In this document: in pieces, positions 1 to 5,674 of the stretch | How positions within the stretch are numbered: the first letter of the stretch is position 1 | Layout of the letters: every line of letters starts with the position of its first letter | Origin: a virus | Length of the DNA stretch: 5,674 nucleotides | IMG/VR virus record: IMGVR_UViG_3300045988_037143 | Coordinates: 1 to 5,674 of that record | Strand: one strand, 5' to 3' | Translations under genes and position numbers: made by a program | The notes under the pieces: generated by a model | Told to the model about the DNA's origin: nothing | The model's input: only the letters and a program-made list of their open reading frames with translations | The model's database searches: none

Positions 1-77
1 CGTTGTTGCTTATCTGGTTATATACACCCTGAGTGATTGCCGCCATGGTGTTATAGCCCATTTGTTCGAACATGCTT
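1..77. repeat. Terminal redundancy: 1-77 is identical to 5598-5674. This is an assembly overlap of a circular genome (unit length 5597 nt).
   Basis: Base-by-base comparison of the first 77 nt (cgttgttgcttatctgg...gaacatgctt) with 5598-5674 shows identity. The VP2 reading frame stays open and in frame across the junction. Confidence 0.9.
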
Positions 78-346
78 TTGCGGTTAAACTTCTGCTGGCT
101 TTGCATATTGCTTTGAATTGCCCCTAGCATACTGTTCCAGTCTTGTAGGTTTTGTTCTCGGTTTACGCCGCTGGCGGCGCTGCTGTAGCCTCCTCCCTGG
201 CTTGAGCTTTCGTTGTGCTGTTGGCTGCCTCCGTTGCTCTCCATCAGATTCCCGCCTAGGAATTTGTTTATGAGTCCTCCGGCGATTGTTGGGAGTAGTT
301 GTTTGCCGATTCCGAGCAGTGCGCTGCCGATTGCTGCTAACGCCAT
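1..346 (-). CDS. VP2: VP2 minor capsid / DNA pilot protein, N-terminal part. The complete CDS is 5098..5674 joined to 78..346 on the circle, 281 aa.
   Basis: The minus-strand ATG at 346-344 gives MALAAIGSALLGIGKQLLPTIAGGLINKFLGGNLMESNGGSQQHNESSSQGGGYSSAASGVNREQNLQDWNSMLGAIQSNMQSQQKFNRKS with no stop. It joins in frame to MFEQMGYNTMAAITQ..., the 190-aa ORF at the other end of the window. The joined length is 846 nt (282 codons). The hydrophobic N-terminus and Gly/Ser-rich middle are typical of microvirus pilot proteins. It sits immediately 3' of VP1, as in gokushoviruses. Confidence 0.75.
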   Translation of the reverse strand, partial: MALAAIGSALLGIGKQLLPTIAGGLINKFLGGNLMESNGGSQQHNESSSQGGGYSSAASGVNREQNLQDWNSMLGAIQSNMQSQQKFNRKSMFEQMGYNTMAAITQGVYNQISNN

Positions 347-354
347 AATAAAAT

Positions 355-377
355 AGCCCGGGGTTTTGCCCCGGGCT
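355..377 (-). terminator. Stem-loop between the VP1 stop and the VP2 start. A 9-bp GC-rich stem (355-363 / 369-377, a355:t377 then 8 G:C pairs) with a 5-nt loop, followed on the minus strand by ATTTTATT. Terminator-like or an mRNA/ssDNA structural element.
   Basis: Read directly: minus strand AGCCCGGGG-CAAAA-CCCCGGGCT-ATTTTATT-ATG(VP2). A purine tract AGGAAAGGGGGAAG lies immediately 5' of the stem on the minus strand. Confidence 0.5.
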
Positions 378-391
378 TCCCCCTTTCCTGT

Positions 392-2032
392 TTAATGATG
401 GTCGTCGAGCCCTGGAATGCTGTACATGGGCATAGGTCTCACGCTGGTGTTGTCAATGACCGTATCCATGATGAACTGCGGTTCGTCGTCCACCGCCAAG
501 GTTCGCTGGATTTCGGAGTCTCCTTCTTTCATCCATGCCTGGCTTAAGCTCGGCGTTTCCGTGTAGTTGTCTCCGTAGTGCCAACTGTCCAGCGTTCCGG
601 TCGCGTTGCTCCGGAATTTTCCGCTGATTCTGTTTGGCTTCATGCGGTATTCTGCCCATGCTTCTTGGTACCCAAATGCCTGTTCATCTGTGTCCGTTCC
701 GGTAAGGTACAGCTCCTTTTTGAGAATTGCTTGCTCTCCCAGATTTGCGAAGACCGGGTAATAGAAATCCAGATTGGTTTTTCGACTCCACATCCGCTCG
801 AGTCCCTGCTGATAGGTATGGTCATGCCGGATGCAGCATACTCCGATAACATAGCCGTGTTCCTCAAAGCTTTTTGTGAACATACTGCCGTTGTACGGCG
901 TAACGCTCACGGCTGCGGTGTTGCCCTGCGGACTTTCCGTAGTTGTGCCGCTGGTCTGGATGACCTGACTCATGTTGATGGTGATACGTGTACCGCCCAG
1001 ATACTCAGGAATTTGTACCGTCTTATCGCTGATTTTGGTGTTGAACAGCGAATAAATCATCTCGCGGTAACGGCTGCCTCCGCGTGCCAGCTGTTCGTAG
1101 TATTTTTGAACTTGAAATGCTTGTCTCAGCTGATTGACGGTTGCGGATGTTACGTTGTCCATTCTTGCGCCTAAGTAGATTTCTTTCTGGGTGGGTGTGT
1201 ATCCTACAACGCCTAAAGGTTTGGTTTGGTTTTCGATTTTTGCCAGCGCTCCGGTGGTGCTTAACTCTGTTCGTTTGATGTCTGAATATCCGAATATTGG
1301 AGCGTTTCCTTCCAGTGGAAGTTGTACTTCAGGGCCTTTCTGCGGACTCGGTAAAGCCGACGTGAAATAGTCGTGGTACTTGTTGACCGGAAGAGGTCTG
1401 CCGCCTGTGTATGCGTTCTGGAGAATATACTCCAAGTCCGGTTTTGCCGCGTCCATGCCCTTTGTTTCGTCGTCCGTATAGTTTACGGTTGCGTCTGTCG
1501 TGCTGTTGATGGCCGGATTGTCAACGTTCTGGTCTCTAAACCACTCCTGCCATATCATAGCGTACGCCCTCATGGGCAACGCGTTGATAGTGAATGCCGT
1601 ATCTTCTCCTTTGCTTACCTTGGTCGGAATACCCATGTAGTCAAGGATGCTTCCTTCATAAGGCGCGGGCTTATCTTTCGTTCCGACGACTCTTACTTGT
1701 GGGATGTAGTAGTTATTTGTTTGCGTCCAAGGTCCTTCATCGTTCTCGCCCATGAATCTCTTGAAGTTATCCCAGATGATTCGACAAGGTACGTTGAAAT
1801 AGTAGATGTCCATATGACAGTTATCCATAACCGGGAAGATAGGAGTTGTCATACGTATAATAGCGGCTTGGTCGACGCTGAACGTGTCTCCCGGTAACAC
1901 CTCGTCCACATAAAATGGGATGAGCTGTCCTGCATTGAGCGTCAGTTTGACATCTTGCCGCCGCTTGAATCGGCTTCGCGTAATGTCCAAGCGCGGGACT
2001 TGGTTAAATCCTGCGTTTTTGTTTCTGTTCAT
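392..2032 (-). CDS. VP1: Major capsid protein VP1 (546 aa), Microviridae / gokushovirus-like
   Basis: A 546-aa ORF. Its N-terminus (MNRNKNAGFNQVPRLDITRSRF...NAGQLIPFYVDEVLPGDTF...PIFPVMDNCHMDIYYFNVPCRIIWDNFKRFMGE) follows the conserved gokushovirus VP1 pattern. Its size fits Gokushovirinae VP1 (about 530-570 aa). SD GGAGG lies 7 nt upstream of the ATG, which overlaps the upstream gene stop (ATGA). Confidence 0.95.
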   Translation of the reverse strand: MNRNKNAGFNQVPRLDITRSRFKRRQDVKLTLNAGQLIPFYVDEVLPGDTFSVDQAAIIRMTTPIFPVMDNCHMDIYYFNVPCRIIWDNFKRFMGENDEGPWTQTNNYYIPQVRVVGTKDKPAPYEGSILDYMGIPTKVSKGEDTAFTINALPMRAYAMIWQEWFRDQNVDNPAINSTTDATVNYTDDETKGMDAAKPDLEYILQNAYTGGRPLPVNKYHDYFTSALPSPQKGPEVQLPLEGNAPIFGYSDIKRTELSTTGALAKIENQTKPLGVVGYTPTQKEIYLGARMDNVTSATVNQLRQAFQVQKYYEQLARGGSRYREMIYSLFNTKISDKTVQIPEYLGGTRITINMSQVIQTSGTTTESPQGNTAAVSVTPYNGSMFTKSFEEHGYVIGVCCIRHDHTYQQGLERMWSRKTNLDFYYPVFANLGEQAILKKELYLTGTDTDEQAFGYQEAWAEYRMKPNRISGKFRSNATGTLDSWHYGDNYTETPSLSQAWMKEGDSEIQRTLAVDDEPQFIMDTVIDNTSVRPMPMYSIPGLDDHH

Positions 2033-2505
2033 TCAGTCGCCTCCGTTTTCGGTTCCTCGGGTTTTTCTTCCTGATAGATTCCCAGATTTTTTGCCCACTC
2101 GACCGTTCCAAACGATGCAATAAATTTGTCGACATCGTTGTCAAATTTGAGCTTTATTTCTTTCGGCACCTCGTCCCAGATTTGCTCTGCTCGCATCATG
2201 ATGTTCTGGAGTTCGGCCAGATTCTGCGGCGCTTCGGTAAAGTCTTGGATGCCGCCCCCGATGTCTGGCTTGATGCGTGCTGCAATGTCTGGGTCGATGC
2301 TTGCCCGCCTGATGATGTTTTCCAGTTTGGTTTCTTCGAGATAGCTGTCTATCTCGGCTTGCTGGTCAATGGTTTGGTCGAGTCTCAGCACCTTTTCGCC
2401 TTTTTTATTGCGCTCCCAGAGGTACGTGCGCCTTACGCTTTCCCCGGCCTCGGTCGGCTTTGCTGTGGCGGTCTGCCGCCAGTTACTTACTGAGCGATAC
2501 GCCAT
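2029..2505 (-). CDS. Acidic 158-aa protein immediately upstream of VP1 and translationally coupled to it. Candidate internal scaffolding protein (VP3-like).
   Basis: The track ORF 2029..2532 begins with TTG. The likely true start is the ATG at 2505-2503, preceded by AAGGAG. The stop TGA overlaps the VP1 ATG (ATGA). The protein is acidic and Glu/Asp-rich, as scaffold proteins are. It has no recognisable enzymatic motifs. The assignment rests on position and composition only. Confidence 0.45.
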   Translation of the reverse strand: MAYRSVSNWRQTATAKPTEAGESVRRTYLWERNKKGEKVLRLDQTIDQQAEIDSYLEETKLENIIRRASIDPDIAARIKPDIGGGIQDFTEAPQNLAELQNIMMRAEQIWDEVPKEIKLKFDNDVDKFIASFGTVEWAKNLGIYQEEKPEEPKTEATE

Positions 2506-2725
2506 CGTAAATGTTCTCCTTTTCGTTCTCAAACAGGCCTGTTTTCTCGTCGAATTTTGCCAGGCGCACTAGCCGATAGTCGCTCGGCGTCTTACTCATC
2601 ATGTTGCGTTCATCGGTCAGCGCAATCTTAAAGTTGCGCTCTGCTACCTTGTCTTCTCGTTCCGTAAAGATAGTGATGTAGCCCATCACACACTGGTCAT
2701 AGATGCCGTATACGTTGTTGCTCAT
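2483..2725 (-). CDS. Hypothetical small protein (80 aa)
   Basis: Starts at the internal ATG at 2725-2723, preceded by GGGGGAAAAACAA. The 129-aa track ORF extends it upstream from a TTG through a low-complexity His-rich stretch built from CAT repeats, which is unlikely to be real. It overlaps the VP3-like start by 23 nt. No recognisable motifs. Confidence 0.45.
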   Translation of the reverse strand: MSNNVYGIYDQCVMGYITIFTEREDKVAERNFKIALTDERNMMSKTPSDYRLVRLAKFDEKTGLFENEKENIYDGVSLSK

Positions 2726-2829
2726 TTGTTTTTCCCCCAGTTTTTGATGATGTCGGTGCCCATTGCGATGAGCGCAAAGCTTGCGCTGCACATTGCGATG
2801 ATGCTGGCGATGACTCCTACCCATATCAT
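2722..2829 (-). CDS. 35-aa single-pass membrane peptide (MIWVGVIASIIAMCSASFALIAMGTDIIKNWGKNK). Candidate small membrane or lysis-type protein.
   Basis: Translated by hand from the minus strand. ATG at 2829-2827. The TGA stop overlaps the ATG of the downstream 80-aa ORF (ATGA coupling). There are 26 hydrophobic residues, then the charged tail KNWGKNK. An alternative in-frame GTG at 2838 has GAGGGGG 9 nt upstream (38 aa). It is absent from the ORF track because it is under 60 aa. Confidence 0.4.
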   Translation of the reverse strand: MIWVGVIASIIAMCSASFALIAMGTDIIKNWGKNK

Positions 2830-2937
2830 GATGTTCACAGTCTGATACCCCCTCGCATTGCGCCGCTCCCAAGGTTGATGGCCTTGGTTTTTCGTGCGGT
2901 CTTGTTGTAAATTTTTGCGTCCTTGGATTTGCGGACT

Positions 2938-3159
2938 TTACTCCTCTTTCCCATGGTTGATTTCCCTTCTGAGTATTTCTACCTCAATTTCTGTCGCTTT
3001 TGCTTTTTTTCGGAAGACCATGTCAAGGTAAAACTTTGCGTCGTCGTACTTTGCGGCCTGTCGTAGCAGTTTGTAAGCGGCGTCGATTTCCTTGTAGGTT
3101 CGCGTCAATTTCTCCATGAGTTTCGTGTCGGTCTGGTCTCTTACGTTCCATGTTTTCAC
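2938..3159 (-). CDS. Hypothetical small charged helical protein (73 aa)
   Basis: GTG start at 3159, preceded by GAGGAG with a 7-nt spacer. The protein is Lys/Glu-rich. No recognisable motifs. Confidence 0.45.
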   Translation of the reverse strand: MKTWNVRDQTDTKLMEKLTRTYKEIDAAYKLLRQAAKYDDAKFYLDMVFRKKAKATEIEVEILRREINHGKEE

Positions 3160-3163
3160 TTGG

Positions 3164-3310
3164 TTACTCCTCGGGCTTGTTTCCCTCTACTGCATGATAA
3201 ATCTTGTCCAGCATAGCCAAGATTTTGCGGATGTTGTTAAACAGCGCGTCGATTTCCTTGATAGACAGAGCGGACACCTTCTTTCTTAAGTTATTTTGTA
3301 TAAATGGCAT
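3164..3310 (-). CDS. Possible 48-aa ORF (MPFIQNNLRKKVSALSIKEIDALFNNIRKILAMLDKIYHAVEGNKPEE)
   Basis: Hand-translated. Its stop TAA lies within the GAGGAGTAA RBS of the 73-aa gene. It has no clear SD, and its ATG sits inside a candidate -10 element. The call is weak. Confidence 0.25.
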   Translation of the reverse strand: MPFIQNNLRKKVSALSIKEIDALFNNIRKILAMLDKIYHAVEGNKPEE

Positions 3311-3336
3311 TGTAAAACAGCACTTTCCGCTGTCTA
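3309..3336 (-). promoter_or_regulatory. Candidate secondary sigma70-like promoter just downstream of the terminator (minus strand TAGACA-16 nt-TACAAT)
   Basis: Minus strand TAGACA (complement of 3331-3336), a 16-nt spacer, then TACAAT (complement of 3309-3314). This is a 5/6 + 5/6 match to consensus. It could re-initiate transcription of the downstream genes after the strong terminator. Confidence 0.3.
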
Positions 3337-3352
3337 ACTATTTATGTTGTAT

Positions 3353-3390
3353 CAAAAAAAACAGGGCTTGTCAAGCCCTGTTTTAAAATT
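3353..3390 (-). terminator. Rho-independent terminator. Perfect palindrome ACAGGGCTTG-T-CAAGCCCTGT flanked by A8 and T-rich tracts. Bidirectional, but strongest for the minus strand (stem followed by T8).
   Basis: Plus strand: CAAAAAAAA-CAGGGCTTGTCAAGCCCTG-TTTTAAAATT. Minus strand: ...AGAGAAAAATAA-TTTTAAAA-CAGGGCTTGACAAGCCCTG-TTTTTTTTGAT. It sits immediately after the stop of the 58-aa ORF. Confidence 0.7.
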
Positions 3391-3565
3391 ATTTTTCTCT
3401 TCTGTTTAGTTCGTCTTTTGCTAGCGCGTGGATGTATTCACAACGGTAGCTTATGTCATTACATGGGCATTTTTCGCAATCTCTGTTGCAGTGCTTGAAT
3501 TTGTAGTCCATCCATCTCAAGGCCTCTGTGTCAAGGTCTTTGTACGTTGCTCTTAAAGTTTTCAT
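3389..3565 (-). CDS. 58-aa Cys-rich small protein (MKTLRATYKDLDTEALRWMDYKFKHCNRDCEKCPCNDISYRCEYIHALAKDELNRREK). Possible zinc-binding small protein.
   Basis: Hand-translated. ATG at 3565-3563, preceded by AGGGGAT with a 7-nt spacer, 20 nt downstream of a consensus promoter. The TAA stop abuts the terminator. The Cys/His cluster H25-C26-x3-C30-x2-C33-x-C35-x6-C42-x3-H46 resembles a zinc ribbon or knuckle. It is absent from the track because it is under 60 aa. Confidence 0.55.
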   Translation of the reverse strand: MKTLRATYKDLDTEALRWMDYKFKHCNRDCEKCPCNDISYRCEYIHALAKDELNRREK

Positions 3566-3591
3566 AGTCTTTATCCCCTTTCTTTAATTGG

Positions 3592-3620
3592 ATTATACCA
3601 CAACTTTGCTTATTTGTCAA
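3592..3620 (-). promoter_or_regulatory. Perfect consensus sigma70 promoter on the minus strand: TTGACA - 17 nt - (TGg)TATAAT with an upstream A/T-rich UP-like tract
   Basis: The reverse complement of 3591-3640 is AACTTTTTTTCAAAAACCTC-TTGACA-AATAAGCAAAGTTGTGG-TATAAT-C. Both hexamers match 6/6 and the spacer is 17 nt. The extended -10 TGn is present. The predicted TSS is near 3585, giving a 20-nt leader with an SD for the 58-aa ORF. Confidence 0.7.
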
Positions 3621-3661
3621 GAGGTTTTTGAAAAAAAGTTTAGATGTGCTATGCCTTGAAG

Positions 3662-3701
3662 GTCATGCGGTAGGCGCGGTGCGCCGTACGGAGAGCATGA
3701 C
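3662..3701. other. GC-rich nested stem-loop in the intergenic region. Outer stem GTCATGC (3662-3668) pairs with GCATGAC (3695-3701). Inner stem GTAGGCGC (3670-3677) pairs with GCGCC-(G bulge)-TAC (3681-3689), loop GGT.
   Basis: Inverted repeats read directly from the sequence. This is the only GC-rich island in an otherwise AT-rich non-coding region. Confidence 0.4.
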
Positions 3702-3743
3702 GAGACCTTCCGGTTTCGCTCGTCGGACGGCCTTTAATTCGAT

Positions 3744-3948
3744 TTTTCCACACTTTCAACATTTTCAACAGGTTTTCCACGAAAAGTTGCACAAATGGTT
3801 TTGTGCATATTGCTACACTTTCAACAATTCAACAAGTTATCCACAAAAGTATCAACATCAAAATAATCCAGAAAATATCGTTCCAAGGATAAAAATTCAT
3901 GGTATTCAACATTTCAACACTCCCTACTATTACGACTACAACAAGTTA
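3744..3948. repeat. Iteron-like array. There are six perfect TTCAACA heptamers in three closely spaced direct-repeat pairs: 3755/3764, 3820/3828 and 3905/3913. Flanking repeats are CACTTTCAACA (twice), TTTTCCAC (twice) and CAACAAGTTA (twice).
   Basis: Counted directly in the AT-rich intergenic region. Pair spacing is 8-9 nt, and the pairs are 65 and 85 nt apart. There is no minus-strand ORF here. The plus-strand 129-aa ORF across it is low-complexity. Confidence 0.5.
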
Positions 3949-3968
3949 ATAATAAATAATAATAATAT
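3949..3968. repeat. (AAT)n / AT-only tract (aataataaataataataata) immediately 5' of the GC hairpin
   Basis: Read directly. A 100% A/T 20-mer. Confidence 0.6.
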
Positions 3969-4008
3969 CATGCGCGTGCGTGCGCGATTACGTGCGCGCG
4001 CGTGCATG
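3969..4008. repeat. 40-nt alternating pyrimidine-purine (CG/TG) element. It forms an 18-bp hairpin (catgcgcgtgcgtgcgcg - atta - cgtgcgcgcgcgtgcatg) with 14 Watson-Crick pairs and 4 G:T pairs. It has potential to form Z-DNA or an ssDNA hairpin.
   Basis: Each arm alternates Py-Pu perfectly for 18 and 18+ nt. Arm pairing was checked position by position. It is embedded in 100% AT flanks. Confidence 0.6.
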
Positions 4009-4027
4009 TCAATATGAAATAAAATAC

Positions 4028-4063
4028 TCAGCCAAGTAACATACTTGATAGTTACTTGGCTGA
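4028..4063 (-). terminator. Perfect 13-bp inverted repeat (TCAGCCAAGTAAC / GTTACTTGGCTGA) with a 10-nt loop. On the minus strand it is followed by TATTTTATTT. Probable terminator downstream of VP4. The plus-strand loop is ATACTTGATA.
   Basis: The reverse complement of 4028-4040 equals 4051-4063 exactly. A second small hairpin TGACAC-caaa-GTGTCA (4065-4080) overlaps the VP4 stop codon. Confidence 0.6.
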
Positions 4064-4077
4064 GTGACACCAAAGTG

Positions 4078-5097
4078 TCAAAATACACCTTTGGCTTTGC
4101 TCATCTTTTTGGACATGGATGCTTCCTTGTCCTTTAGCTGCTCTGCGTATGACTTATCTGTTTCCGCGTTTCTTTCGATTAGGGACGCAATGGCTTTTTC
4201 CTGCCGATACTGTTTGATTCTCCACGCTTTTTCAGGGTTCTCCGCTTCCAGTTTTCGCCAGTAGTATTCCGGTATGGCTGCTCTCTTGCCGTTGGTAAGC
4301 TGTATGTATCCCTGCTGCCAGAGTCTCTCTTGATGGTCTCGGAACCATTGGTCTCCGAGTCCCGGCTTTCGGCTCATTGTGCAAAATGGTGGTATTAAAC
4401 CCATTTTTTGGAAACGCTTTTTGTCGTTGCCGTACAGCTTTTTAGTTACGTACCCTGCAACATAATTATATGTTTGTGGTACTGCTTGTGCGATGTCAAC
4501 TGTACCCTGCCCCCAGATTTTGACTAGCTTATCACTTGTGTAGTGACCGTGTCTTGATAGCTTATGGATTGGCTTTAAGTCGTCTGGGTGCCATCCGTAC
4601 AGTATCATGTGATAGTGTGGTCTCGCTGTGTTGTCTCCATACTCTCCGGCTAAAAAGTATCTCAGAGGCTCTTTGATGGCCTTTCTTAGCCTTTTAATAA
4701 AGAGCTGGGTATCCTCCACGCTCAATGTTTGCGTCGTTCTCGGACGCTCTGAGGTGCCTTTCCAGATATTTATGCCGCCTTTGTAGATTTCGCCTGTTTC
4801 TGTGTCTTGTGTTGGTACATGGTCATCGTCGTACGTTAGCGTGATAAACCAGACACTTTCTTTGTCGTATCCGTATGCTTCTAGCTCCATCCGCGTCGCC
4901 CAGTCTTTGCGTTTGCGCAGTCTGCACCCGGTACATTGTCCACATGGTATCAACATTACATCTTTGCGGTACATTAAATTTTCGTACGTCATTTTGGTCT
5001 TGTGTATCTCGTTAAAAGAGGCGAGTGAGTACACTCGCCCACTCGCCTCTCTGTCGTGAGGTACATAAAACCGAATTAACGGTTTATTGCATCCCAT
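4078..5097 (-). CDS. VP4: Replication initiation protein VP4 (339 aa), an HUH rolling-circle endonuclease
   Basis: The N-terminus MGCNKPLIRFYVP has the M-x-C-x-x-P-L form common in gokushovirus VP4. The CGQCTGC zinc-binding cluster is present. Motif I is FITLTY (residues 84-89). Motif II is HYH (residues 161-163, nt 4609-4617, verified). Motif III is YVAGYVTKK (residues 212-220, nt 4438-4464, verified), near-identical to phiX174 A protein YVAKYVNKK with its two catalytic Tyr. The ATG directly abuts the VP2 stop (TAAATG). Confidence 0.93.
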   Translation of the reverse strand: MGCNKPLIRFYVPHDREASGRVYSLASFNEIHKTKMTYENLMYRKDVMLIPCGQCTGCRLRKRKDWATRMELEAYGYDKESVWFITLTYDDDHVPTQDTETGEIYKGGINIWKGTSERPRTTQTLSVEDTQLFIKRLRKAIKEPLRYFLAGEYGDNTARPHYHMILYGWHPDDLKPIHKLSRHGHYTSDKLVKIWGQGTVDIAQAVPQTYNYVAGYVTKKLYGNDKKRFQKMGLIPPFCTMSRKPGLGDQWFRDHQERLWQQGYIQLTNGKRAAIPEYYWRKLEAENPEKAWRIKQYRQEKAIASLIERNAETDKSYAEQLKDKEASMSKKMSKAKGVF

Positions 5098-5674
5098 TTA
5101 TTTAAGTTTCCCTTTCCAATATTCGATGTTTTTGCTCCCGATGAAGTCTCTTCCCGGTTTGTAGTTGAGCTCATCTTTGGTCGGTTGTCTCCCTGCACCG
5201 CCGACGCCACTGTTTAGGTTGCTGAGGTCGTTGAAGACGTCCTTGAATGCATTAAACGCTTTGTCTGCGCTTGTGTGTGACCAGCTTGTAGCGTCTCCAA
5301 CCGCTTGTGCTGCGTTGTACCAGTTACTTTTGCTTTTGCTCCATGTGTTGTTGTGGTTCTGGCTTACTCCGAGTGCGCTTGCGGTCGCTGCACTGCTGCT
5401 TGCGAGGCCCATACTTGCCCCGCTGATAGTTCCCTGACTGCCGCCCGGTGTGCTTGCTCCGCCCTGTTGGTATGCTAAGATAGGGTTAATGCCTGCTTTT
5501 CGCATATCTTCCACGGCTCGCTGATAAGCTGTATTGCTCATTTGTTCTTGCCAAGCTCTGTTTTTGGCTGCTTCTGCGCTGTTGTAGGACATCGCCGCGT
5601 TGTTGCTTATCTGGTTATATACACCCTGAGTGATTGCCGCCATGGTGTTATAGCCCATTTGTTCGAACATGCTT
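5098..5674 (-). CDS. VP2: VP2 minor capsid / pilot protein, C-terminal part. Continues upstream across the circular junction to the ATG at 346.
   Basis: The 190-aa track ORF (MFEQMGYNTMAAITQGVYNQ...GGASTPGGSQGTISGASMGLASSSAATASALG...) is open to the window edge and in frame with 78..346. It has a Gly/Ser/Ala-rich low-complexity core typical of VP2. Its TAA is adjacent to the VP4 ATG. Confidence 0.85.
   Translation of the reverse strand, partial: SMFEQMGYNTMAAITQGVYNQISNNAAMSYNSAEAAKNRAWQEQMSNTAYQRAVEDMRKAGINPILAYQQGGASTPGGSQGTISGASMGLASSSAATASALGVSQNHNNTWSKSKSNWYNAAQAVGDATSWSHTSADKAFNAFKDVFNDLSNLNSGVGGAGRQPTKDELNYKPGRDFIGSKNIEYWKGKLK
5598..5674. repeat. Second copy of the terminal redundancy (identical to 1-77)
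   Basis: See the 1-77 feature. Confidence 0.9.

Follow-up and report, generated by a model that had tools for sequence, protein, structure and literature searches.

The locus analyzed here raises the question of what a gap of 512 nt is doing in the otherwise tightly packed genome of a small phage. The window, meaning the whole stretch of 5,674 nt under study (IMG/VR record IMGVR_UViG_3300045988_037143, positions 1 to 5,674), is a complete circular microvirus genome of the gokushovirus type, with a unit of 5597 nt, a terminal redundancy of 77 nt, and every gene on the minus (-) strand, hereafter the gene strand. The gap spans positions 3566-4077, or 9.1% of the unit, from the stop codon of the replication gene VP4 to the first small open reading frame (ORF), which starts at 3565, and an initial annotation of this DNA was right to describe it as a large gap of about 510 nt and 9% of the genome. 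Microviruses are textbook rolling-circle replicons, thought to need only the initiator Rep, here VP4, and host elongation factors. The answer that we favor, and hold to be rather probable from comparisons of sequence, is that the gap is a composite replication-control region in which about 225 bp (3744-3968) imitate a host chromosomal origin and would act as an unwinding module, driven by the host initiator DnaA, for the initiation of phage replication. Such an oriC-type unwinding module is of a known kind, while its setting in a rolling-circle single-stranded DNA (ssDNA) phage is unexpected; a description of DnaA boxes or DnaA-trios in Microviridae was not found in the literature searched, which leaves out most subscription journals, so that a prior description is possible.

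The first line of evidence is the architecture of the module (Table 1). The initial annotation had counted six TTCAACA repeats and an (AAT)n tract in the gap, and both are borne out: the six copies all lie on the plus (+) strand, about 0.97 would be expected in the whole window, and the observed total was reached by 0 of 200 shuffled sequences. The six copies are parts of 9-10 co-oriented boxes of the form TTTTCAACA or TTWTCCACA, nine of which lie within one mismatch of TTWTCMACA, on one strand throughout. Two box clusters are followed by a variable spacer and a tandem pair of boxes, and the right end of the module reads GTATTCAACATTTCAACACTCCCTACTATTACGACTA and then (AAT)n. On the + strand the trios read CTA CTA TTA, which is GAT GAT AAT on the other strand, giving at least three trios with a central A. 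The end of the upstream tandem box lies 12 bp from the first trio in the window, as it does in 177 of the 186 modules described below.

This arrangement follows the published rules of the basal unwinding system (BUS) of bacterial origins, in which a box lies 0-16 bp from at least three NAN trios with the consensus 3'-GAT-5', usually across a spacer of 10-13 bp (PMC8287927). There, the boxes guide DnaA onto the adjacent 3'-GAT-5' trios, where DnaA oligomerises and opens the duplex. The window agrees in box distance, in having three or more trios, in a 10-13-bp spacer that holds the second box and the GC cluster, and in the AT-rich element. It differs in chromosomal context, since an oriC adjoins dnaA or dnaN at the replication skew switch and the module lies between VP4 and small phage genes, and we therefore file it as a mimic or derivative of oriC, not as a chromosomal origin. 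In Clostridioides difficile, a DnaA-dependent unwinding site has been located in the dnaA-dnaN spacer, where the trio sequence 5'-CACCTACTACTATTACTACTATGA-3' stands between a GC cluster and the unwinding element (PMC7561715). The trios of the window resemble this sequence.

The same design was found in bacterial genomes scanned for three closely spaced copies of TTTCAACA. The output was mixed but included a well-defined set from Oscillospiraceae, Ruminococcaceae, Ruminococcus, and Clostridia, and in 9 of the 120 genome matches (Oscillospiraceae, Ruminococcaceae, or Clostridia) the arrays stood beside dnaA, mostly in the dnaA-dnaN spacer; at two of these loci (L261 and L239), Pfam matches bore out the identity of DnaA and the beta clamp (DnaN). 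In Firmicutes, this spacer is where oriC lies. No 9-mer is more frequent than TTTTCAACA in these host spacers, which hold 58 copies in 4967 nt, and it ranks first in the phage modules too; the tandem boxes of the window are within one mismatch of the TTWTCMACA dialect that dominates in the spacers. The right ends of the host arrays read GTTTTCAACAGTTTCAACACCCCCTACTACTACTACTA and then AT-rich sequence, with CCCC or ACC at the position of the C-rich cluster, where CTCC is the commonest variant among the relatives of the window, others being CTA, TTGC, TACT, and GCCC. An end consisting of two boxes, a C-cluster, CTACTACTA, and AT-rich sequence is thus common to the phage modules and the host spacers, the right end of the module being about 85% identical to host origin ends over about 40 nt, and the box-GG-box pair of cluster 1, TTTCAACAGGTTTTC[AC]ACA, recurs in host origins as well. 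From its position and architecture in these spacers, TTTTCAACA would be the DnaA box of the likely hosts, Oscillospiraceae and Ruminococcus, which suggests that the phage recruits the host initiator. Two further loci in contigs binned as Anaerolineae, L235 (about 7210-7250, - strand) and L288 (about 1173-1211), have an unusually phage-like right end (TTTTCAACACCCCTACTATTACGACTAC) and could belong to a mis-binned mobile element or to another host lineage with the same origin design.

The host match bears directly on the view taken in the initial annotation, that the repeats are iterons of a plasmid-type origin. In such an origin or operator array, they would be bound by a phage protein, for example VP4 or the 58-aa Cys-rich protein encoded next to the region. 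Direct repeats beside an AT-rich tract and GC-rich sequence do resemble such an origin, if in appearance only, and the first gene past the region does encode that small Cys-rich protein. Nevertheless, the same boxes in the same architecture occur in the dnaA-dnaN spacers of Oscillospiraceae and Ruminococcus, and an unrelated phage has these boxes too, both facts pointing to a host protein; the boxes are identical across lineages whose VP4 proteins are only 34% identical; and the repeats are 8-9 bp long, with trios and an AT tract, where iteron origins have repeats of 17-22 bp and an adjacent initiator of their own. Since the window encodes no iteron-type initiator, its only initiator being VP4, a HUH Rep (PF23343), and a search of a plasmid collection for the module gave no match, we give this view very little credence.

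The second line of evidence is conservation. Viral contigs were searched with two short core motifs, and the counts that follow are among the matches listed. The module is present in at least 200 microvirus contigs of three lineages, nearly all matches to the two motifs being microvirus-sized contigs, and a comparison set of 211 distinct related genomes was assembled in groups A, B, and C, whose VP4 identity to the window is >80%, about 57%, and 34-42% (VP1 about 40%), respectively. The IMG/VR contigs come mostly from one very large dataset, with about two dozen datasets and independent GenBank records in agreement. A strict pattern of boxes, spacer, and trios is met with in 186 of the 211 genomes, with 7-10 boxes per module, CTACTACTA or a longer run in about 170 of the 186, and a mean of 72% A+T over the 30 nt past the trios. 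The same pattern occurs once in the window, in none of 14 module-free microviruses, and in 2 of 2000 resampled sequences. When diverse gokushoviruses were sought by alignment, the matches belonged for the most part to this clade again, and GenBank records were sampled in their place.

Within the module, conservation is position-specific. Among 172 unique modules, only the boxes, the trios, and CTACAACAAGTTA show high column information, with the maximum at the trios, while the inter-box spacers are free to vary, the AT tract varies in length, and TTTTCAACA, TTTTCCACA, and TTATCCACA interchange at homologous positions. The core (about 3744-3957) is 72-86% identical in the group whose VP4 is only about 57% identical, and the module keeps an identity of about 70% between genomes that share about 40% in VP1 and about 34% in VP4. 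Given that the same plateau of about 70% is found within group C and between groups, constraint explains the similarity and recent horizontal transfer is not needed. The alignment to relatives that the initial annotation had called for therefore gives a clear outcome, with conservation concentrated in the repeats and reaching far beyond that of the flanking genes: its idea of a control or origin region in place of a passive spacer stands, whereas the likeness to plasmid-type Rep iterons does not, the boxes being of the DnaA type. As an observation apart, CTACAACAAGTTA (3936-3948, right after the trios) is invariant in the 172 unique phage modules, and its complement TAACTTGTTG resembles the AACTTG of phiX174; no such tail was observed in the host origin ends that were inspected.

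These patterns weigh on two further explanations. One holds that the module is a functionless passenger, either host origin DNA acquired by recombination or an assembly artefact, as the close match of its right end to host origin ends might suggest. We regard this as extremely improbable, given that the module sits at fixed places in at least 200 contigs from many datasets and in GenBank records of four animal sources, that its conservation is position-specific, and that it has been kept across VP4 identities of 34-57% in genomes with little room to spare. The other holds that the array plays no origin role and is a DnaA sink, titrating DnaA as datA does through the multicopy replicative form, or a switch by which DnaA occupancy controls the adjacent promoter, so that it disturbs host initiation or times phage genes. 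Nine to ten boxes per genome copy would suit a sink, the array of the window lies about 125 nt upstream of a consensus promoter, and the unrelated TAG-recoded phage L209 carries 14 such boxes with no clear trios. For titration, however, the best-conserved part of the module, trios at a fixed spacing of 12 bp together with an AT tract, would be superfluous, and the position relative to promoters is not conserved, the module of group C lying upstream of VP4. We consider a sink or switch unlikely.

The third line of evidence comes from the other end of the gap, where the initial annotation had seen a perfect inverted repeat of 13 bp. The repeat is there, with a stem of 15 bp, and its loop (4041-4050) reads ATACTTGATA on the + strand, which contains CTTGATA, and TATCAAGTAT on the other. 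Of the 211 related genomes, 197 have GTGTCA and then a hairpin of 9 bp or more on the gene strand, as against 2 with this combination on the opposite strand, and between virus groups the stem sequence is wholly different while the loop core CAAG/CTTG is kept. The origin of phiX174 has CAACTTG/ATA at the annotated rep_origin, 4306. The strongest hairpins of Chp2 (L347, 2904-2941) and SpV4 (L348, 512-544) have the loops TCTACTTGAT and ATTACTTGTTATA with a TGA(C/T) flank, that of SpV4 starting 7 nt past the VP4 stop. A hairpin with a CTTGAT loop and a TGAC flank is present in 9 of 13 sampled module-free microviruses, Chp2 and SpV4 among the 9, on the gene strand every time; the hairpin coordinates are 4852-4893 in MG945541 (L474), where it is visibly homologous to the 4026-4065 hairpin of the window, and 2643-2679 in OM869699 (L475). 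On these comparisons, the hairpin is a family-wide, gokushovirus-wide one, and its phiX174-like CTTG/ATA loop makes it the best candidate for, and probably, the nick site of VP4. That it is a plain terminator is unlikely, the T-run not being conserved and the hairpin lying upstream of VP4 in group C and in MG945541.

How the module is placed relative to this hairpin and to the genes is the fourth line of evidence. In groups A and B, it follows VP4 and has its boxes on the antisense strand; most group C genomes carry it the other way round, in the gap from VP2 to VP4. Its AT-rich, unwinding end is nearer the hairpin in 107 of 109 complete circular genomes, at median distances of 54-181 nt, whether the module is downstream (groups A and B) or upstream (group C) of the hairpin. 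Such a mirror-image layout suggests the hairpin as the target of the DnaA-driven opening. The facing rule is broken only by a sub-lineage of group B (L069, L079, L123, L147, and L178; for example, L079 2255-2490) in which the module is inverted in place; this lineage has itself diverged, which shows the inverted arrangement to be viable. Its breakpoints are the GC-rich alternating purine-pyrimidine blocks on both sides of the module, suggesting inversion by recombination between short inverted GC-rich blocks.

Strand composition at 4-fold sites is the same for both module orientations, so that a flip of the module does not appear to change the packaged strand, and on the same ground a nick site inside the module, by which a module flip would be a packaged-strand flip, is not supported. 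Occurrence in both orientations and in two intergenic gaps with unchanged strand composition fits an element that works on duplex DNA. Single-stranded phages, however, need a start signal for the complementary strand. One might accordingly take the region for an origin acting on the incoming single strand, similar to the single-strand origins (sso) of rolling-circle plasmids or to the site of the ABC primosome, in which DnaA on a hairpin-held box loads helicase and primase; DnaA can prime ssDNA replication from a hairpin with one DnaA box (PMC6127211), and 3799-3809 can pair with 3838-3848, which would put TTATCCACA in a stem. But the boxes are co-oriented, without inverted partners (6-7 forward against 0 reverse per genome), and would thus be single-stranded in the virion strand, and the sole stem that could hold a box has a better local hairpin as its competitor and does not occur in groups B and C. 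Besides, a signal acting on a single strand should not work both ways round, as the module seems to do with respect to the genes and to the strand-specific hairpin. We judge such an origin to be quite improbable.

Returning to the host-origin mimic, we infer the following course of events. Host DnaA-ATP would bind the co-oriented boxes on the double-stranded replicative form and oligomerise from the tandem boxes onto the trios, whereupon the AT tract would melt, and the opening, pointed at the Rep-type hairpin (4026-4065), would start phage DNA synthesis. In one version of the last step, the hairpin would be helped to become single-stranded for nicking by VP4; in another, the host helicase would load for a Rep-independent, minichromosome-like replication that could underlie persistence in a carrier state.

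Several observations weigh against this reading. The two trio-proximal boxes of the window have 3 mismatches to TTATCCACA, the box of E. coli, and those of most relatives (TTTTCAACA/T) have 2. In E. coli, the position at which TTTTCAACA differs from the canonical box is a required one. The count of 107 of 109 reflects only about three independent rearrangements, so its statistics are weak, the inverted group B lineage is viable with the opposite orientation, and in the common arrangement the GC-rich hairpin stands between the AT tract and the Rep hairpin. No prophage was found, nor any microvirus genes at the 120 bacterial loci with box arrays. Finally, unwinding in vitro needed both origin halves in C. 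difficile (PMC7561715), and a module of 225 bp might not suffice.

A bolder proposal is that this clade runs two origins, the DnaA-fired oriC mimic for minichromosome-like replication and a flipped VP4 hairpin, with a packaged strand complementary to the mRNAs, which would make it a negative-sense microvirus. By sequence, the module-bearing clade has its hairpin reversed with respect to the genes, in contrast to the gene-strand position found in all 9 module-free microviruses with such a hairpin, and the CTTG/ATA motif of the window (4044-4050, + strand) is antisense to the genes, so that the packaged strand would decide whether the match is of the phiX174 type. Three hints agree on a flipped packaged strand: the antisense CTTGAT/TGAC, an antisense T-over-A bias, and a hairpin with G.T pairs that folds only on the antisense strand. 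At 4-fold sites, the T-over-A bias on the gene strand is -0.36 to -0.61 in the module clade as against +0.18 to +0.87 in most others; the strand with more T than A is the gene strand for phiX174, Chp2, SpV4, and most others and the antisense strand for the module clade. Skew was rejected as decisive for the packaged strand, since A likewise exceeds T on the gene strand of phiMH2K and of two further viruses that lack the module, and the proposal as a whole strikes us as a doubtful one.

The initial annotation had also called the region structured, which holds in part. With fold significance expressed as z against shuffled sequence, the region as a whole is weakly structured (z -1.75), the inverted repeat and the purine-pyrimidine hairpin are structured, and shuffled sequences fold as well as the GC-rich nested stem-loop at 3662-3701 (z -0.7 and -1.0), which lies in a stretch that is variable among relatives. 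The 40-nt alternating hairpin (3969-4008) is real and is stable on one strand only, with -20 kcal/mol and z -3.1 on the + strand and -10.8 kcal/mol and z +1.0 on the - strand, because of its G.T pairs; among 78 genomes of the common arrangement, 74 have it more stable on the CTA-repeat strand, and its alternating character could favor Z-DNA. In all groups, the module has 28-30% GC with GC-rich blocks on both sides. In groups B and C, another hairpin (CGTCAAAATGACG) replaces the one at 3788-3807, a few bases away.

The claim that the gap has no ORF on the gene strand is literally incorrect, as ORFs of 47 and 50 aa lie on the - strand, and the + strand also has a TTG-start ORF of 129 aa; its non-coding character is upheld all the same. 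None of these short ORFs is conserved, the 129-aa one being intact in 1 of 76 relatives, and indel lengths among relatives are spread evenly over the three phases (18/16/17) without triplet bias, so that coding potential was rejected, and with it the conserved small ORF that would have overturned the initial annotation. A chimera, its other stated risk, is contradicted by finding the region at the same position in IMG/VR contigs of about two dozen datasets and in GenBank microvirus records from human, pig, monkey, and dog faeces. Searching the region against all Rfam families at a permissive threshold gave sub-threshold chance matches only (for example, tpke11, with 25 bits where the gathering score is 43), a tRNA/tmRNA scan found none, and Pfam and PHROGs gave nothing informative for the small ORFs and the 129-aa ORF. 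The AT skew switches sign over 3700-4100. At the site equivalent to the promoter of the small-gene cluster, group B has TTGACA-17-TAAAAT.

Table 1. Features in and around the gap, in coordinates of the window; functional labels of the module and hairpin are predictions
Feature	Position	Strand	Remarks
VP5, VP3 scaffold, VP1 capsid	2032-392	-	
Small-ORF cluster	from 3565	-	
Ribosome-binding site (RBS) AAAGGGGA	about 3571-3578	-	accompanies the promoter of the small-gene cluster
Sigma-70 promoter, consensus TTGACA-17-TGgTATAAT	3592-3620	-	12/12 match with TG extension; small-gene cluster downstream
GC-rich variable spacer, second GC-rich block flanking the module	3650-3743		contains 3662-3701; fold as in shuffles; poorly conserved
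Box cluster 1: TTTTCCACA, CTTTCAACA, TTTTCAACA, GG, TTTTCCACG	3744-3781	+	
Small hairpin TGCACAAA/TTTGTGCA	3788-3807		between box clusters 1 and 2
Box cluster 2: CTTTCAACA, AATTCAACA, TTATCCACA (perfect canonical DnaA box), GTATCAACA	3818-3857	+	
Tandem DnaA-type boxes TATTCAACA, (A)TTTCAACA	3903-3919 (3903-3911, 3911-3919)	+	directly upstream of the trios
C-rich cluster CTCC	3920-3923	+	between proximal box and trios
DnaA-trios CTA CTA TTA CGA CTA, then invariant CAACAAGTTA	3924-3948	+	3'-GAT-5' on the other strand
AT-rich tract (AAT)n, presumed DNA unwinding element	3945-3968		23/24 A+T
GC-rich alternating purine-pyrimidine hairpin	3969-4008	+	adjoins the AT tract; one of two GC-rich flanking blocks
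Hairpin, 15-bp stem, 10-nt loop 4041-4050	4026-4065 (arms 4026-4040, 4051-4065)		z -7.8 on both strands
GTGTCA lead-in of the hairpin	4065-4070	-	TGACAC as 3' flank on the + strand
VP4 Rep	5097-4078 (stop codon 4078-4080)	-	HUH-type Rep, Pfam REP_ORF2-G2P, PF23343
VP2 pilot protein	5670-5098	-	continues across the junction

Some side observations concern neighboring sequence and other contigs. The product of the first small ORF (3389-3565), a Cys-rich protein of 58 aa (CNRDCEKCPCN...C), matched neither a Pfam nor a PHROG family, and between this ORF and the rest of the cluster lies a perfect hairpin with 13-bp arms (AAAACAGGGCTTG-x-CAAGCCCTGTTTT, 3358-3384) that scores as a terminator in both directions. 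The contig L061/L222 (IMGVR_UViG_3300045988_007630, 10.9 kb), about twice the size of a microvirus, has best matches to group B genes together with MG945541-like VP1 and VP4 and may be a dimer or chimera of two microviruses. A search of other viral contigs for the canonical-box version (TCCACA...CTACTACTAC) gave no further microviruses and only a few large contigs, among them L366 (705-790), L393 (3676-3760), L380 (680-755), and L431 (9333-9410), of 36-95 kb and classed as viral, with canonical TTATCCACA-type boxes, a GC cluster, CTACTACTAC, AT-rich sequence, and up to 13 boxes nearby; these could be host origins inside prophage calls, or origins of large phages or phage-plasmids. In the unrelated phage L209 (IMGVR_UViG_3300032038_001038, 16.3 kb, 30% GC), a non-coding stretch at 10904-11124 holds about 14 GTTTTCAACA boxes, past which come an inverted repeat, then a GC hairpin and an AT-rich run, without clear trios; this phage appears to read TAG as a sense codon, coding density being 70% with table 15 and 25% with table 11. 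A box-array match in L197, a high-GC viral contig of 17 kb, lies inside coding sequence and was judged to be due to chance.

Should the proposed role be correct, the master initiator of the host would take part in the replication or persistence of hundreds of gut microviruses, giving a testable handle on how replication starts, and possibly on gut persistence, in very abundant uncultured phages; if the oriC mimic fires, plasmid-like persistence in dividing Oscillospiraceae becomes possible. If, in turn, the flipped hairpin reflects the packaged strand, the assumption that all microviruses are positive-sense would be overturned. The match of box dialect and origin end to Oscillospiraceae and Ruminococcaceae origins could serve as a sequence-based host predictor, and the module, at about 225 bp, would be a natural minimal origin for studies of DnaA-trio unwinding and for vectors in hard-to-manipulate Clostridia.

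Among known systems, the DnaA-assisted origins of P1, F, pSC101, and RK2 place DnaA boxes beside Rep iterons, encode their own iteron-binding initiator, and replicate by the theta mode. Like these origins and like oriC minichromosomes, the module belongs to a mobile replicon that would recruit DnaA through boxes beside an AT-rich tract; unlike the plasmids, the only initiator of the window is a rolling-circle nickase, the trios are at chromosomal spacing, and no similar sequence came up in the plasmid collection. With the (+) origin of phiX174, CAACTTG/ATATTAATAAC, the window shares CTTG/ATA in the loop ATACTTGATA and a HUH Rep, whereas the phiX174 site lies inside gene A and not in a hairpin, the CTTGAT of the window is read on the strand antisense to the genes, and the rest of the 30-bp phiX174 origin is absent: 3' of the nick, phiX174 has an AT-rich spacer and the recognition sequence CACTATAGACCAC, whereas the loop of the window is followed by a hairpin arm and then TGACACC, without similarity to that recognition sequence. 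The A-site of the ABC primosome is a precedent for DnaA in the replication of single-stranded phage-type DNA (PMC6127211), with one box in a duplex stem there and co-oriented, unpaired boxes in an orientation-independent module here. Enterobacterial gokushoviruses carry a dif-like site for XerC/XerD of 28 bp, with two 11-bp arms and a 6-bp spacer, and their prophages adjoin the host dif (PMC7062461); among the relatives of the window the AT tract varies in length, as a dif core should not, a comparison made without a dif model.

The closest counterpart is the oriC BUS, as in incC of Bacillus subtilis and oriC2 of C. difficile, with which the module shares tandem boxes, a GC cluster, at least three trios at 12 bp, an AT tract, and upstream box clusters, its box dialect and end sequence matching the dnaA-dnaN spacers of Oscillospiraceae and Ruminococcus. 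Unlike an oriC, it sits in a 5.6-kb rolling-circle ssDNA phage, comprises only about 225 bp, lies away from dnaA and dnaN, and has boxes that are all co-oriented, where host origins also have convergent ones. Judged by sequence, this strict co-orientation, the phage-specific invariant CAACAAGTTA after the trios, the GC-rich flanks, and the pairing with a Rep hairpin are the module's own features.

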